Assembly (NCBI GenBank): GCA_015523465.1
Contig: WAKF01000023.1
Location: forward strand, 6,184 to 70,183
Reading direction: 5' to 3'
Length of the DNA stretch: 64,000 bases
Source of the DNA: Aeropyrum sp.
GTDB taxonomy: Archaea > Thermoproteota > Thermoprotei_A > Sulfolobales > Acidilobaceae
Positions 48,516-55,215 of this stretch are shown here, one piece after another; the stretch's first letter is position 1; each line of letters starts with the position of its first letter. The notes under the pieces are model-generated. The model saw only the letters and a program-made list of their open reading frames with translations, was not told the origin of the DNA and made no database searches. Position numbers and translations under genes: made by a program.

Positions 48516-49139
48516 GTGAGCAGCGTGGTATCGCCTAGGGAGACGTTAGTGCCTCCCGAGCTGTATAGGAAGGCGGGGGTCATAATAGGAACTCAGATAT
48601 GCACTAAGTACATGAAACAGTTCGTTCATAGGATGACGGCTGAGGGATACTATCAGATTGACTATGCTAAGACTGATGAGAGGCTCAGGATCGCGGCTGA
48701 TTTCCTCTCTAGGTTCAACCCCGAGAAGATAGCTGTAGTGAGTGTCAGAGTGTATGGGCAAAAACCTGTAAAGAGTATGTGCGAGTATGTGGGCTGCATT
48801 CCGGTTCTGGGGAGGGTTATTCCTGGTACCTTCACTAACCCGCACTTCGAATACTATATAGAGCCCGACGTCATAATGGTTACGGACCCTAGAACCGACA
48901 AGCAGGCTCTAGACGAAGCTAGCAAGATTGGCGTGCCTGTAGTGGCTATAGCGGATACAGACAATAAAGTCGAAAATGTAGACCTAGTTATACCGGCTAA
49001 TAACAGGGGGCGTAGAAGCCTCGCCCTGATATATTGGATACTTACTAGAGAAATACTTAGGAAGTGGGGTAAGCTAGGACCTAACGAAGACCTTCCTGTG
49101 GGCTATGAAGAGTTCATGGCGAAAAAGATCGTTAGATAA
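48516..49139 (+). CDS. rps2: 30S ribosomal protein S2 (uS2)
   Basis: [34 protein letters not shown]. Confidence 0.97.
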
Positions 49140-49188: not shown

Positions 49189-50046
49189 GTGAAGGTTAGG
49201 CTTCCAGCCCACGCAGGAACCTTTTATCCTGCTACTAGGGATGACGTGGTTAAAGCTATAGAAGACTCGTTTAAGCACCCTGTAGGTCCTGGGAGGCTCC
49301 CTGAAAGGGGCGGCGGCTCTAAACCATTACCTATAGCATACGTAGCGCCCCACGCAGGCTACATGTATAGCGGGCCTGTAGCAGCCCACGTCTACTACGA
49401 TCTATCCACCCGATATAGGCCTGAGACTGTAATCATCGTGGGCCCAAACCATACGGGGCTAGGCTTAGCGGCTAGCGTGTGGAGCGAAGGCTACTGGCGC
49501 ACCCCTCTAGGCGATGTGGAGGTCGATTCAGAGGCTGCTAAAGAACTAGCTAAGCGAACCGCCCTCATAGCCCCCGACGAGGAGGCCCATATCTACGAGC
49601 ACAGCGTAGAAGTCCAAATACCGTTTCTCCAATACGTGCTGGGAGAAGACTTCAAGATCGTGCCTGTAGTTGTGCTACACCAGACTCTAGACGCTAGTTT
49701 GAGGATCGCCAGGGCTTACATATCGATGCGAGAGGAATTGTATGGCGATAAAATATTATTGTTGGCTACGAGCGACTTAAACCACTACGAACCCTATGAC
49801 GTGACTGTCGAGAAGGACCTTAAGGTCTTAGAGGCGGCTGAGACAGGCGATCCCGAGTCTCTATGGAATACCATAGAGAGGCTAAGAGTTTCAGCCTGCG
49901 GCCCTACACCCCTCACAGCCGCTGTAGCTTCTGGCAAAATAGCTGGAGGTAGAGTGAAGGTGTTAAAATACGCCAACTCGGGGGATGTTACGGGAGAGAA
50001 GGCGTGGGTTGTGGGCTACCCAGCCGTGTTGGTGGATAGGAGTTGA
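49189..50046 (+). CDS. MEMO1 family protein (AmmeMemoRadiSam protein B)
   Basis: PAHAGTFYP, PHAGYMYSG, GPNHTG, EHSVEVQIPF, TSDLNHY, SACGP; start placed at GTG 49189. Confidence 0.93.
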   Translation: MKVRLPAHAGTFYPATRDDVVKAIEDSFKHPVGPGRLPERGGGSKPLPIAYVAPHAGYMYSGPVAAHVYYDLSTRYRPETVIIVGPNHTGLGLAASVWSEGYWRTPLGDVEVDSEAAKELAKRTALIAPDEEAHIYEHSVEVQIPFLQYVLGEDFKIVPVVVLHQTLDASLRIARAYISMREELYGDKILLLATSDLNHYEPYDVTVEKDLKVLEAAETGDPESLWNTIERLRVSACGPTPLTAAVASGKIAGGRVKVLKYANSGDVTGEKAWVVGYPAVLVDRS

Positions 50047-50807
50047 GGATTAAGGCACCCATACCATCTCTCCTACTAGGCACCCCCATACCAGGCTCCG
50101 AAAACCCCTACTTAGCGGCGCCCGCCTGGGAATTGGAGGCCCTCATAGACCTTTCTAGCGAGTGCTTGGTTGACGGCATAAGCGATACGTTTTTAAGCGA
50201 TGCTGTTAGAGAGTTCTCATATAGGCTTTTCAGGGGGCTAGAGCTAGATGATGAATGTATAAGGCTTAGATTACACTCAATGCTCCCCCCTTATAGGCTC
50301 GGAGTCTACGCTTCCCTAACCTCAGTAATAGTCTATGGGGCTGCCAGACTCTACGGAGAAAAACTCTCGACACTAGAGGTCCTGGAGTTGGCCAGGCTAG
50401 CTGAGGTTCTAGAAGGCGATTCAAGCTTTCATGCAGCCTTAGAGGCTCTCCGCTACGCCACGCTGGAGGGTAGTGTAGCCGTCTATAGAAATGAGGAAGA
50501 GCACTCAAAACTCCCTAGCAAAGCAGTTAGAGTTAACGTATTGAGGATCAAAGACGCTCAGGCTAGAGTCTCGAAGGATAGTGTAGGCAGCGATGTCTAC
50601 GGAGCCATCATCCACCTAATGGGGGTTACTGTGCTAGAGGCCGCGATAAGACTTAGAGAGGGGATGGAATTGAAGGATACAATACTCTCTCTTAAACCTG
50701 TCCACGACGCCGTAACCCTAGCAGTGTGGGGGCTCGCGCCCTCAAAGGAAAACTGCCTATGGACCCTTGATTTGCCAGGATCCTTTGCAGAGGCCTGCAT
50801 TGAGTAG
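50043..50807 (+). CDS. Degenerate GHMP-kinase (mevalonate kinase-like) protein
   Basis: Occupies the usual mvk position; MRIKAP..LLLG and LHSMLPPYRLGVYAS...GEKLSTLEVLELARLAE mimic GHMP motifs 1 and 2 without GxGLGSS. Confidence 0.6.
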   Translation: MRIKAPIPSLLLGTPIPGSENPYLAAPAWELEALIDLSSECLVDGISDTFLSDAVREFSYRLFRGLELDDECIRLRLHSMLPPYRLGVYASLTSVIVYGAARLYGEKLSTLEVLELARLAEVLEGDSSFHAALEALRYATLEGSVAVYRNEEEHSKLPSKAVRVNVLRIKDAQARVSKDSVGSDVYGAIIHLMGVTVLEAAIRLREGMELKDTILSLKPVHDAVTLAVWGLAPSKENCLWTLDLPGSFAEACIE

Positions 50808-50824: not shown

Positions 50825-51571
50825 TTGAGTGCCTGTAGGACCTCCGTAGTAAAACTCGGAGGCGGTGCCATAACATTTAAAGACAGGCCGTTCACGTTAG
50901 ATTGGCCTTCTCTCTCCCTCGCTTCCAGTCAGCTAGCAGAGTATAGGAAGCAGGGTGGGGTTCTAGTTGCTATTGTTCATGGAGGGGGGAGTTTTGGACA
51001 TTACGTGGCTAGTAAAATAGTTGAGGCGAGAGCTAGTACCACTGTCATGGTATCAAAGATTCAGGAAGCAATGGATATCCTCTCCACACTAGTAACCTCA
51101 GCTCTCAGAGGATATGGGATTCCAGTCACGCTTCACCACCCAAGGAGCATCTGTATAGAGCCCTCTCGCTGTGACCTCACTATATTGAAACGTGACGTCG
51201 AGCAAGGCCTAGTTCCGGTAACTCACGGGGACGCACTAATGAAGGAGGATAAGGCTATAATTATTAGTGGGGACTGGCTTGCGGCCGAAATAGCAGTTAG
51301 GGAGGGAGTCGATTGCTTAATCTATGCTACCAGGGTTGGAGGGGTTTATGGAAGAGGCGGCAATATATTGAGATCTCTATCTTCCGAGGGAGAAGTAATA
51401 TATGTAGGGAGTGAAGGTAGGGATGTTACTGGTGGCATAAAGATTAAGGTTAGGGAGGCTTTGAGGGCTAGTAGGGAGGGCGTTAGAAGAGTCTTGATAA
51501 CAGGTGTCTCGGATATATTGCCTGTGCTTTTGGGCGATGATAGGGGCACGCTAGTGGTGGCTAGAGAATGA
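50825..51571 (+). CDS. ipk: Isopentenyl phosphate kinase
   Basis: VVKLGGGAITFK, VHGGGSFGH, THGD, ISGD, DVTGGIKIK; next to fni. Confidence 0.92.
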   Translation: MSACRTSVVKLGGGAITFKDRPFTLDWPSLSLASSQLAEYRKQGGVLVAIVHGGGSFGHYVASKIVEARASTTVMVSKIQEAMDILSTLVTSALRGYGIPVTLHHPRSICIEPSRCDLTILKRDVEQGLVPVTHGDALMKEDKAIIISGDWLAAEIAVREGVDCLIYATRVGGVYGRGGNILRSLSSEGEVIYVGSEGRDVTGGIKIKVREALRASREGVRRVLITGVSDILPVLLGDDRGTLVVARE

Positions 51572-52701
51572 CCTCTGAGACTTCCTCCAGGAAGCTTGAG
51601 CATCTTAAGATGGTAGTGACGTCTAAGGTGGAGGCAGCAGAGTCCACTCTACTAGAATATGTGAGGATCGTGCATAACCCCCTTCCCGACTTAGACTTAG
51701 ACGAGATAGACTTGGAGGTAGACTTCTGCGGTGGCAAGCTCAAGGCACCCTTAATCATAACAGGCATGACGGGAGGCCACCCAGATGTAGCATGGATCAA
51801 CAGAGACCTGGCATCGCTAGCCGAAGAGCTGGGAATAGCTATGGGTGTGGGTAGTCAGAGGGCGGCTATTGAAGATAGAAGGCTTGAAGAGACTTTTAGG
51901 ATAGCTAGGAAGGCCGCTCCAAACGCATTTCTCATAGCCAACTTAGGGGCGCCTCAACTCTCCAAAGGGTATGGGCTCGAGGAGGTCGTGAGGGCCATAG
52001 AGATGATAGACGCTGACGCCATAGCAATCCACTTTAACCCGGCTCAGGAAGCATTTCAAGACGAGGGAGACCCTTACTTCTCCCACGTCATAACTAAGAT
52101 CGTGGAGGCCGTTGAGAGAGCTGGGAAACCTCTAATAGCTAAGGAGGTGGGCACAGGGCTTAGCAGAGAGTTTGTCGCCCAGCTAAGGAGCTTGGGAGTC
52201 AGATGCTTTGACGTAGCCGGACTGGGGGGTACTAATTGGGTGAAGGTGGAGGTCCTGCGATCGAAGGCTAAACACGGAGCCCCTCTCAAGCCTGCAGGCC
52301 CCCTAGCGGATTACTGGGGGAACCCTACAGCTTTAGCTATCATCGAGGCTAGAGAGGCTGCGAGGGACGCCTATATAGTGGGGAGCGGAGGGGTTAGGAA
52401 CGGGCTTGAAGCTGCCAAGGCCATAGCATTGGGAGCCGATGCGGCTGGTCTTGCCCTCCCAGCGGCTAGGAGCCTCTTATCAGGGGGTAAGGAGTCTGTA
52501 AAGAAGCTACTCGAATCCATAATATACCAGATCAAGGTCGCAGTATTCCTTACGGGAGAGAAGCGGGTAAGAGGGCTCTGGAGGGCCCCAATAGTGGTAT
52601 GGGGGAGACTTAGAGAAGAAGTCCAAAACAGGGGAATAGACATAGACTACTACATAAGAGTTACAAGGCTAGAAGCCCTAATGTACAAAGAAGTCAAGTA
52701 A
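51568..52701 (+). CDS. fni: Type 2 isopentenyl-diphosphate delta-isomerase
   Basis: RKLEHL, GMTGG, GVGSQRAA, NPAQE, AKEVGTG, AGLGGT, SGGVRNG. Confidence 0.96.
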   Translation: MTSETSSRKLEHLKMVVTSKVEAAESTLLEYVRIVHNPLPDLDLDEIDLEVDFCGGKLKAPLIITGMTGGHPDVAWINRDLASLAEELGIAMGVGSQRAAIEDRRLEETFRIARKAAPNAFLIANLGAPQLSKGYGLEEVVRAIEMIDADAIAIHFNPAQEAFQDEGDPYFSHVITKIVEAVERAGKPLIAKEVGTGLSREFVAQLRSLGVRCFDVAGLGGTNWVKVEVLRSKAKHGAPLKPAGPLADYWGNPTALAIIEAREAARDAYIVGSGGVRNGLEAAKAIALGADAAGLALPAARSLLSGGKESVKKLLESIIYQIKVAVFLTGEKRVRGLWRAPIVVWGRLREEVQNRGIDIDYYIRVTRLEALMYKEVK

Positions 52702-52770: not shown

Positions 52771-53676
52771 TTGGTTAAGAGTAAGAGAACTAGGACTAGT
52801 GCCTTCGGCTCACCTGGAAGGGTTAGTCACGATTCCAGCCCCTTTTACTCTCGGAAGCTGTATAAGGAGACTCCGTTCCCTAAGCCTCGACCCGAGGACC
52901 TGAAGGAGAACCCGGTACCTCCGGAACTCCTTGATAAGGTGGTGCTTGGAGATGCTCGTGAGGTCCTTCGGAGGCTCCCTGACAACTGCGTGCATCTTGT
53001 AGTCACCTCCCCGCCATACAATGTTGGTAAGGAGTATGACGAAGACTTGACGTTGGGGGAGTACCTAGACTTCATTGAGGGGGTTATGAGGGAGGTTTAC
53101 AGGGTCCTTGTGTGGGGTGGGCGTGTGTGCTTCAACGTAGCCAATCTTGGGAGGAAGCCGTATATACCGCTACACGCCTACCTGATAGAGCGTTTTGAGG
53201 AGATAGGCTTCCTATTCAGGGGGGAGATTATATGGGATAAGGGGGAGGCGGTCTCGGGCTCCAGCACGGCCTGGGGCACGTGGATGAGCCCCGTAAACCC
53301 TATACTCAGGGACCAGCACGAGTACATCATAGTGCTGAGTAAGGGCGACTATAGAAGGAGGCCCCCCAAGGGCGGCAGGGCCACCATAACCAGGGAGGAG
53401 TTCCTAGAGTACACCCGGAGCGTGTGGAGGTTCCCGCCTGAGAGTGCAAGGAGGGTAGGACACCCCGCCCCCTTCCCGGTAGAGCTGCCCTACAGGTGCA
53501 TACAACTCTATACCTTCCAAGGCGACGTAGTACTAGACCCCTTCGCAGGCTCAGGCACAACGTGCTTAGCCGCAAAGCAAACGGGAAGACACTACATATG
53601 TATAGAGGTGGATGAGAGATATGCAGAACTAGCTAGAAAAAGGCTTGAAAACAGCGAGTTTAACTCTCACTCCTAA
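52771..53676 (+). CDS. Site-specific DNA methyltransferase, beta class (N4-C/N6-A)
   Basis: Motif IV TSPPY precedes motif I DPFAGSGTT; HPAPFP present. Confidence 0.92.
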   Translation: MVKSKRTRTSAFGSPGRVSHDSSPFYSRKLYKETPFPKPRPEDLKENPVPPELLDKVVLGDAREVLRRLPDNCVHLVVTSPPYNVGKEYDEDLTLGEYLDFIEGVMREVYRVLVWGGRVCFNVANLGRKPYIPLHAYLIERFEEIGFLFRGEIIWDKGEAVSGSSTAWGTWMSPVNPILRDQHEYIIVLSKGDYRRRPPKGGRATITREEFLEYTRSVWRFPPESARRVGHPAPFPVELPYRCIQLYTFQGDVVLDPFAGSGTTCLAAKQTGRHYICIEVDERYAELARKRLENSEFNSHS

Positions 53677-53685
53677 ATGCGAGGC

Positions 53686-55215
53686 TTAGGACCTGCCGGT
53701 CCTCCTACCTTCCATCCTTAGCCTTAGTACATCTGCCGTTTTCAGGCTACCCAGGATTATTGCTGCTGGGGCTTCCACCTCCATAGTTGCTCTTCCATGC
53801 TCTCTGTGACTAAGCGTTAGCCTCTGAGGCCTTGTTAGAACTATTATATGGCTTGACGTGTCTAGCGCTAACGCTTCCAGAAGAGCTAGTGCACTGTTTG
53901 GGGATAGCCTACGGTTCCCCTGTAGAGTGACCTTACTTAACTCCTCGCCGTCTAGCTTCTCTACGGCATCTAGCCCCCTAGCAAGGGTATGAAGTAATAC
54001 TGCTTCAGGCGCTTCTACCACCACCCCTTCCTCAGCCACTATTACATGGTCTCCTACTCGAGCCTCAATCTTCCCAGGCTGTAGCAATGCATCTGATATA
54101 TGAGACCCTTCAGCCGCAATGCCGGCTGCAAGGTTTAAGAGGCCTTGGACCGATAGTATAATGGGCCTTCCAGGGCTAGAAAGGGGCACGTTGAGGTCTA
54201 AGAGCCCTACAGCTTCCCTTAACGCTATTAAAGCGCATTCAAAAGACCCTCTCAGCAGCTTCCATGACGATAACCTGCATCTCTTTACAGCGTCTAGTGG
54301 AACATTCCTTCTACGCCTCCCTGCGTCCCACCCAAAATCCACTATTACCCTTAAGGGAGCCCAGGAAGACTCGCGGTGTCCTGCAAAGCGTGTTGCTCTG
54401 ACTAGGTTAGAGCGTGCTACGATGCTAGGGGGTATAAAGGCCCCCTTATTCTCCTCTAGCCATGCCCTAACCGCCCCTACTATATTACTCTCCCCAGTCT
54501 TCTCGACGCTCTCTTCTAGGTTTGCTATGAGATTTCTTACAGCCTCCAATGCCTTATTAACACTGTCTCCAACAGCACTCTGGAAGGCCTTGTAGGACCT
54601 AGCAGCCTCAATAGCGTCAATCACCTTTCCAAATACAGCGGCGTACTCGGCCACCACATCGCCTTGAAGCCTCACTCTGACACCCTCACTTGGCTGCCAG
54701 GCCCAGGGCTCCCAGCGGTGGAAATGGAACCCCATAGCCAGCCTAACTAGGTCTTCGCTCAGGCCCCCGTCAACTAAGGATAATATTGATGCTTGAGGTG
54801 CTGGTAGAGCATGGATAAAGGCCTTACCCGAGTCATAGTCTAGCCCAGCAACTAGCCCAAACACGCTAGAATGACAGCTAAGATGTACCTTAAATATAGA
54901 AGACGGATCTATACTCAATACTAAATTCCTATCACGCCTCTCAAACGTGGTAGCAATACTCCAAAAGACTTCTATAAAACATAAGGACCCCACTTTACGG
55001 TCTATTATTACAAGATAGTCGCCAACCCACTCCATACGCGTGTCTCCGCCTCTCACGAAAGCTGCGAGCCTATCTAGATGGCCTGGCAGCAGGTTAAGCT
55101 TGGCCTCTAAAGCCCTTCTTTCCCGCTCGTCTCTGGGGAGGACGGCCTTGCCTCTCACATAGTCTTTAATAAAGTTCTCAAGATCCGCTAGAGGGTCTAG
55201 GTTTACACTCTTCAT
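53686..55215 (-). CDS. Hypothetical protein (509 aa) with QGD and HxEH motifs
   Basis: Long ORF with SD GAGGTG; motifs GLDYDSGKAFIH, RLQGDVV, VGDHVI, LSHREHG. Confidence 0.75.
   Translation of the reverse strand: MKSVNLDPLADLENFIKDYVRGKAVLPRDERERRALEAKLNLLPGHLDRLAAFVRGGDTRMEWVGDYLVIIDRKVGSLCFIEVFWSIATTFERRDRNLVLSIDPSSIFKVHLSCHSSVFGLVAGLDYDSGKAFIHALPAPQASILSLVDGGLSEDLVRLAMGFHFHRWEPWAWQPSEGVRVRLQGDVVAEYAAVFGKVIDAIEAARSYKAFQSAVGDSVNKALEAVRNLIANLEESVEKTGESNIVGAVRAWLEENKGAFIPPSIVARSNLVRATRFAGHRESSWAPLRVIVDFGWDAGRRRRNVPLDAVKRCRLSSWKLLRGSFECALIALREAVGLLDLNVPLSSPGRPIILSVQGLLNLAAGIAAEGSHISDALLQPGKIEARVGDHVIVAEEGVVVEAPEAVLLHTLARGLDAVEKLDGEELSKVTLQGNRRLSPNSALALLEALALDTSSHIIVLTRPQRLTLSHREHGRATMEVEAPAAIILGSLKTADVLRLRMEGRRTGRS

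Follow-up and report, generated by a model that had tools for sequence, protein, structure and literature searches.

The stretch of DNA analysed here (64,000 nucleotides of contig WAKF01000023.1 from Aeropyrum sp., assembly GCA_015523465.1, positions 6,184 to 70,183 of the forward strand; hereafter the window) carries, amid genes of the mevalonate (MVA) pathway, an open reading frame (ORF; 50043–50807, forward strand) for a protein that we give the working name X and that is best read as a derivative of mevalonate kinase (MVK) that keeps the GHMP fold and appears to have lost the kinase motifs. An initial annotation of the window had described this 254-amino-acid (aa) ORF as an apparent pseudokinase in the position of the mevalonate kinase gene (mvk); the ORF exists as described, the sequence strings quoted from it were found, and the pseudokinase reading proved largely right. 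Judged from its sequence, X would count as a pseudoenzyme, combining homology to an enzyme family with loss of catalytic motifs and purifying selection. More specifically, X is probably an MVK-derived pseudoenzyme that binds an anion of the pathway without phosphorylating it, and that joins the proteins encoded next to it, or MVK, as a stoichiometric partner or else regulates them.

Homologues of X were collected by a word-indexed search (17 sequences) and by an exhaustive profile search (77 clusters at 50% identity), and 70 members of the family were scanned against domain models. The best Pfam match of X itself was to GHMP_kinases_N (PF00288; E=0.028) and, at 15.1 bits vs. a cutoff of 22.3, fell below the threshold; the Pfam scan gave no match to PF08544, and no NCBIfam model matched, the mevalonate kinase equivalog TIGR00549 included. 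Across the family, none of the 70 members reached any Pfam or NCBIfam threshold, a weak Pfam GHMP match was seen in only two, and the best TIGR00549 match (E=0.1) occurred in a single member. A single-sequence phmmer search of X against the PDB returned no match, and a profile of the 17 sequences yielded non-significant PDB matches only, with TFIIB noise at the top. An AlphaFold2 model built from the 17-sequence alignment (predicted local distance difference test score (pLDDT) 96.3, predicted template modelling score (pTM) 0.93) was then compared with the PDB via Foldseek, which gave 81 matches at E<=0.001. The best 50 of these 81 were all members of the GHMP superfamily (probability 1.00, E=1e-7 to 1e-5, TM(query) 0.5–0.66), and the matches listed include mevalonate diphosphate and phosphate decarboxylases, mevalonate kinases, phosphomevalonate kinase, galactokinase, homoserine kinase, ForT and pantoate kinase. 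At the level of a predicted structure, the two-domain GHMP fold of X (i.e., a left-handed beta-alpha-beta N-domain followed by a ferredoxin-like C-domain) is confirmed, and the GHMP-like scaffold that the initial annotation had proposed is borne out by these top 50 matches.

Within the superfamily, several comparisons point to MVK as the nearest family. Aligned via hhalign, the X family (70 sequences) matched archaeal MVK (24 sequences) at 96.9% probability (E=2e-10, 225 columns), and the set of 17 X sequences did so at 91.3%. In a size-matched comparison with three Acidilobaceae sequences on each side, MVK scored 92.8% (4e-7) vs. 0.45% (0.13) for homoserine kinase, a control limited by the low diversity of the homoserine kinase profile. 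Moreover, the best PDB match of a hidden Markov model (HMM) of the X family was the Staphylococcus aureus MVK (2X7I; E=2e-4, 205 residues), the same HMM giving E-values of 0.035 for the M. jannaschii MVK, 0.64 for a decarboxylase and 1.1 for homoserine kinase. Finally, the hairpin “GG...YRRGE” that is typical of crenarchaeal MVK has a counterpart in X (“EG...VYRNEEE”). Because of these hhalign results, the size-matched control, the ranking of the HMM against the PDB and the shared hairpin, X is best read as an MVK derivative.

The phosphotransfer motifs were followed through the same alignment, with X numbered as in the window protein, MVK numbered as in A. pernix, and the correspondence taken from hhalign and from counts over the 70 members. 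In motif I, the lysine of MVK (K12) has no lysine counterpart in X; G17 is kept as G13, and E18/H19 align with T/V14 and an invariant P15, so that both the Lys and the Glu-His are gone, as the initial annotation had said of the GEH motif. The P-loop G107-L-G109-S110-S111-A112 is replaced, at equal length, by R85-L-G87-V-Y89-A90 (R85-x-G87-x-Y89-A90 family-wide), with Tyr89 in place of the conserved P-loop serine in 66 of the 70 members; the string PPYRLGVYAS thus does occupy the place of the P-loop. The earlier statement that SGxD is not visible held in part. The SG is absent, but the catalytic D154 of MVK corresponds to an acidic residue (E134 in the window protein) in all 17 close members and in 41/70 family-wide, the A. 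pernix X having a serine at this position; MVK E143 likewise corresponds to an acidic residue, at position 121, in 65/70. The glycine-rich loop of motif III (KLTGAGGGG), reported as missing, was found nowhere in X, whose C-terminal region is ~70 residues shorter than that of MVK and is left unaligned by hhalign. The Lys and the Asp of MVK have been described as strictly conserved and catalytic (PMC6283576). The alignment supports a loss of all three phosphotransfer motifs, and X would no longer phosphorylate mevalonate.

In place of these motifs the family conserves a set of its own, i.e., N21 (68/70), P22 (66/70), Y89 (66/70), R137 (64/70), R149 (69/70), an acidic residue at 152 (67/70), a basic residue at 191 (68/70) and G194 (67/70), and the element YR..E (Y148-R149, E152) is common to X and the “YRRGE” of crenarchaeal MVK. 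The family-wide invariants are polar or charged (N21, Y89, D/E121, R137, R149, E/D152 and H/K/R191). Since by alignment several of them fall within the loop of motif I, within the P-loop or beside the former catalytic Asp, the old active-site cleft would seem to have been remodelled rather than abandoned. This pattern suits ligand binding, or a new activity independent of ATP, no less than it suits a dead scaffold.

The 17 homologues share 36–57% identity and 29 invariant columns, are all ~250 aa long, and are all unnamed or “hypothetical”; the ~77 clusters from the exhaustive search are essentially all 250–280 aa. All named members are Desulfurococcales-type archaea. The family includes Aeropyrum pernix K1 (APE_1769.1, BAA80772.2, UniProt Q9YB26; “hypothetical” at NCBI), Caldisphaera lagunensis, Stetteria hydrogenophila, Pyrofollis japonicus (PYJP_18660), a Hyperthermus metagenome-assembled genome (MAG), a complete Desulfurococcaceae genome, and many Desulfurococcales, Acidilobaceae and Thermoprotei MAGs; with the 17-sequence alignment, only seven genome loci were located. 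The A. pernix orthologue is ~41% identical to the window protein and lies in the same MEMO-X-IPK-IDI2-GGPPS context. Because its automatic UniRef name is “GHMP kinase N-terminal domain-containing protein”, the superfamily link of the A. pernix protein has already been detected by machine, and one JGI pipeline record labels a family member “mevalonate kinase”. Literature searches found no paper mentioning APE_1769, Q9YB26 or an archaeal pseudo-MVK, and nothing for APE_2439 or Q9Y946; the supplements of PMC11052028 hold no per-genome entries for these taxa.

Retention of X under selection, which had been proposed as a check, was seen in four independent sequence pairs, with Nei-Gojobori dN/dS values (nonsynonymous over synonymous substitution rates) of 0.14–0.21. 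In the same loci the values were 0.06–0.10 for isopentenyl phosphate kinase (IPK) and 0.05–0.085 for MEMO. X is clearly under purifying selection, which is somewhat more relaxed than that on the neighbouring enzymes. The window itself is matched by a 77-kb scaffold from a hydrothermal-vent metagenome, and its sequence was matched in DNA metagenome runs only. In four independent vent-metagenome runs or assemblies the X ORF was intact, with four single-nucleotide polymorphisms (two synonymous, D70N and M80K) and no indels, and it is therefore a real ORF rather than an assembly artefact. The natural variants from other vent runs lie at window positions 50250 (D70N) and 50281 (M80K), K80 is also carried by the database representative P0001, and both positions are poorly conserved and upstream of the P-loop remnant.

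To locate the canonical MVK of these archaea, an A. pernix MVK sequence was used as the query and was validated by its matches (96% identity to a database A. pernix MVK, with a cluster that includes Q9Y946); an M. jannaschii MVK query matched 1KKH exactly. The A. pernix query matched 1385 proteins, including canonical MVKs of 320–330 aa (PF00288 + PF08544) from Aeropyrum, Stetteria, Acidilobus, Caldisphaera and Acidilobaceae/Desulfurococcales MAGs. The 1,669,696-bp genome of A. pernix K1 encodes both MVK (BAA81454.1/Q9Y946, 324 aa) and X (BAA80772.2/Q9YB26), and in Stetteria, MVK and X-IPK are ~39 kb apart on BAAHYL010000001.1. Since a canonical MVK coexists with X in related genomes, X is in these an additional protein and not the sole MVK. 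The proposal that the active Mvk is located elsewhere accordingly stands for A. pernix K1 and Stetteria, as far as a canonical MVK is concerned, and we infer the same for two Acidilobaceae MAGs, whose MVK and IPK genes were found on contigs of matching length (1,112,783 bp in one MAG and 1,159,524 bp in the other). For the first of these, an X-like 253-aa gene lies beside an identical IPK on another assembly; for the second, the evidence covers MVK and IPK.

Within the 64-kb window, a scan for the P-loop and motif III revealed no canonical GHMP P-loop protein, and over the window and the relatives' loci taken together it picked up homoserine kinases only. A homoserine kinase (NF002288, E=1e-74) is encoded ~5 kb from MEMO-X-IPK in several relatives (locus L005, 755–1693 on the reverse strand; also L009 and L010) and is the only canonical GHMP kinase in the flanks examined. 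It could be mistaken for the missing MVK, and the GHMP kinase near X in L005 was rejected as such on being identified as homoserine kinase. As a separate observation, at L023, 3532–5978, the canonical Stetteria MVK overlaps by 4 nucleotides (nt) an upstream gene for a 490-aa protein with PterinBD-DUF4346/DUF6513 domains, an unexpected operon partner for the relocated MVK.

The gene order in the window is rps2-MEMO-X-IPK-IDI2 (Table 1), preceded by a ribosomal string (rps13-rps4-rps11-rpoD-rpl18e-rpl13-rps9-rpoN-rps2), and the Pfam and NCBIfam matches for MEMO, IPK and the type-2 isopentenyl-diphosphate isomerase (IDI2) agree with the rps2-MEMO-ipk-fni cluster that had been claimed. X begins with a TTG codon in a 4-nt overlap with the MEMO stop, and IDI2 and IPK likewise overlap by 4 nt. 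The phrase “mvk position” was checked in one relative, a Thermoprotei MAG, and is supported by it: X is absent there, and a canonical MVK is encoded next to MEMO, rps2 and IDI2.

Table 1. Genes around X and segments of X discussed in the text (window coordinates)
Feature	Position	Strand	Remarks
Ribosomal protein S2 (rps2)	48516..49139	+	closes the ribosomal string ahead of the MVA genes
MEMO / AmmeMemoRadiSam system protein B	49105 (or 49189)..50046	+	PF01875, E=7e-70; TIGR04336
X, putative MVK-derived GHMP-fold protein without kinase motifs (pseudo-mevalonate kinase)	50043..50807	+	254 aa, TTG start
X residues G13-P22 (GTPIPGSENP)	50079..50108	+	loop replacing GHMP motif I (PGKxILFGEH)
X residues R85-A90 (RLGVYA)	50295..50312	+	degenerate P-loop, gapless alignment to MVK GLGSSA
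X residues L133-E153 (LEALRYATLEGSVAVYRNEEE)	50439..50501	+	region around the former catalytic Asp
X residues L242-F248 (LDLPGSF)	50766..50786	+	probable beta-hairpin turn where motif III is expected (from secondary structure)
Isopentenyl phosphate kinase (IPK)	50825..51571	+	NF040647, 133.7 bits vs. cutoff 120
Type-2 isopentenyl-diphosphate isomerase (IDI2/fni)	51568..52701	+	TIGR02151, E=4e-112

Almost all of the loci examined have X immediately 3′ of MEMO and 5′ of IPK and/or IDI2, often with GGPPS next. This MEMO/IPK/IDI2 context was found, besides the window, in loci L005, L007, L015 (A. pernix K1), L016 (Stetteria), L017, L018 (Caldisphaera), L020 (Desulfurococcaceae) and L021 (Pyrofollis), and the 4–11-nt gene overlaps in the X loci indicate that X and its neighbours form one operon. 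In S. hydrogenophila (BAAHYL010000001.1; L016, 1–1974), X-IPK-IDI2-GGPPS lies within 5 kb of the genes for AMPD (i.e., UbiD) and phosphomevalonate dehydratase (i.e., an apparently split AcnX large subunit and a small subunit). This Stetteria cluster amounts to an almost complete lower archaeal mevalonate pathway, from which only the canonical MVK, 39 kb away, is missing. In the complete genome of Desulfurococcaceae archaeon MEX13E-LK6-19 (L020, 6001–7897), IDI2 comes straight after X, without an intervening IPK, and the links of X to MEMO and to IDI2 are therefore more constant than that to IPK. In the Desulfurococcales loci L015, L016, L017, L020 and L021, the gene found consistently after IDI2/GGPPS encodes a DUF2118 (PF09891) protein, which may represent a further conserved and uncharacterised component of this gene neighbourhood.

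In Desulfurococcales-type archaea, X sits where the rps2-MEMO-mvk-ipk-idi operon ancestrally carried mvk, and the kinase step falls to a canonical 324-aa MVK encoded elsewhere. A plausible history would start with an mvk gene inside the operon that was duplicated in an ancestor of these lineages. The relocated copy would have kept catalysis, and the copy left in situ would have kept whatever tied MVK to MEMO and IPK. In its remodelled cleft, X most likely binds an anionic pathway metabolite, which might be of the mevalonate or phosphomevalonate type and would be left unphosphorylated, and it may pair stoichiometrically with the co-translated MEMO and IPK, or with MVK, or else regulate them. 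X would then be a pseudoenzyme that keeps the non-catalytic half of the ancestral MVK role. Some observations weigh against this reading. The P-loop remnant keeps the canonical loop length, GHMP P-loops bind phosphate via backbone amides, and X might still bind nucleotides or phosphate to some degree. All 17 members of the window's subfamily keep an acidic residue at the counterparts of MVK Glu143 and of the catalytic Asp154, which would be compatible as well with residual or altered catalysis. More generally, strong conservation at polar and charged positions is more often the mark of an enzyme or a ligand binder than of a pure scaffold.

Among known systems, the closest to X is archaeal MVK (A. 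pernix Q9Y946, M. jannaschii 1KKH, M. mazei 4HAC/6MDE), which has the same two-domain fold, fills the same place in the operon next to MEMO, IPK and IDI2, and shares with X the helix after the P-loop, G17/G13, the acidic E143/121 and the “GG..YR..E” hairpin. Unlike archaeal MVK, X is ~70 residues shorter, lacks the motif I Lys/Glu-His and motif III, has RxGxYAA for GLGSSAA, reaches neither the PF00288 nor the PF08544 threshold, and coexists with a genuine MVK. Outside the kinases, the Caenorhabditis elegans protein XOL-1 is a non-kinase GHMP-fold protein that acts as a eukaryotic developmental regulator; it has no specific sequence relationship to X. The same absence of a specific relationship applies to ForT / beta-RFAP synthase, in which the GHMP scaffold serves a role other than phosphoryl transfer, but where a glycine-rich loop that binds phosphoribosyl pyrophosphate (PRPP) is kept. 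Within the mevalonate pathway itself, the Thermoplasma mevalonate 3,5-bisphosphate decarboxylase is an ATP-independent member of the diphosphomevalonate decarboxylase branch (PMC9254496). Like X it is a GHMP-fold protein of the pathway, and it sets a precedent for a function kept after nucleotide use was lost; unlike X it stems from the decarboxylase branch, has a defined reaction, and belongs to another lineage and another variant of the pathway.

Such precedents, i.e., the ATP-independent decarboxylase and the PRPP-using ForT / beta-RFAP synthases, make it conceivable, though on balance doubtful, that X has been neofunctionalised into an ATP-independent catalyst of GHMP fold, with either a phosphorylated C5/C6 intermediate or a MEMO substrate or product as its target. 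The polar and charged invariants that align with former active-site positions would suit such an enzyme, as would the tight embedding of X in an operon with pathway enzymes, the presence of ForT, itself a non-kinase GHMP-fold enzyme, among the Foldseek matches, and an ATP-independent member of the superfamily documented in PMC9254496. Yet X is confined to Desulfurococcales-type lineages, and there is therefore no universal missing step for it to fill, and its dN/dS is 2–3 times that of the neighbouring enzymes. Moreover, each step of the A. pernix pathway reportedly has its enzyme already (MVK, PMDh, AMPD, IPK and IDI, as Hayakawa et al. are said to have found in 2018). Tentatively, one could still picture an MVK descendant that has gained an activity independent of ATP or has become an obligate partner of the enigmatic MEMO, and with it an isoprenoid step or control point of Aeropyrum-type archaea that has gone unrecognised; the handling or supply of a C5 monophosphate and the sensing of phosphomevalonate would be possible roles. 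If this were true, X would give a first functional handle on the link of MEMO to mevalonate genes across Archaea.

It is improbable that X has remained a kinase of mevalonate, or a related kinase, with a non-canonical active site or phosphoryl donor, either redundant with the canonical MVK or specialised relative to it. Its exact placement in the mvk slot, the JGI label, the P-loop length and the acidic residues that the window's subfamily keeps at MVK E143 and D154 would all agree with a kinase, but the strictly conserved lysine is gone, the P-loop serine has become an invariant tyrosine and motif III is missing. Furthermore, the position of the catalytic Asp is acidic in only 41/70 members and a serine in A. 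pernix, the best TIGR00549 match stays at E=0.1 in 1/70, and each complete or large genome that was checked also encodes a canonical MVK. As for X being a decaying pseudogene or a mis-called ORF without function, which its faster evolution relative to its neighbours and the lack of a fitting database model could suggest, this was rejected as highly implausible on the selection and conservation data and on the intact ORF in the metagenomes, i.e., a dN/dS of 0.14–0.21, a constant length over ~77 clusters, 29 invariant columns at 36–57% identity, an AlphaFold2 pLDDT of 96, no indels in four assemblies, and synteny conserved across families.

It was in A. pernix that the mevalonate pathway of archaea, now regarded as complete, was elucidated, and this species and its relatives nonetheless keep a conserved, uncharacterised and apparently MVK-derived protein amid the MEMO-IPK-IDI2-GGPPS operon. 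To our knowledge, pseudoenzymes are little documented in the GHMP superfamily; as a pseudoenzyme, X would show, in a clean natural example, how a small-molecule (GHMP) kinase was duplicated and one copy then lost its kinase motifs, and it gives a testable entry point to flux regulation in the archaeal pathway and to the role of the universally linked MEMO homologue. For annotation, it follows that pipelines relying on synteny or on weak similarity can mislabel X as mevalonate kinase, as one JGI record does.

Finally, just downstream of the mevalonate genes the window contains a 509-aa ORF (53686–55215, reverse strand) with no Pfam match on record, which adjoins an N6/N4 DNA methyltransferase gene (52771–53676, PF01555) and could be a partner in a restriction-modification or defence module.

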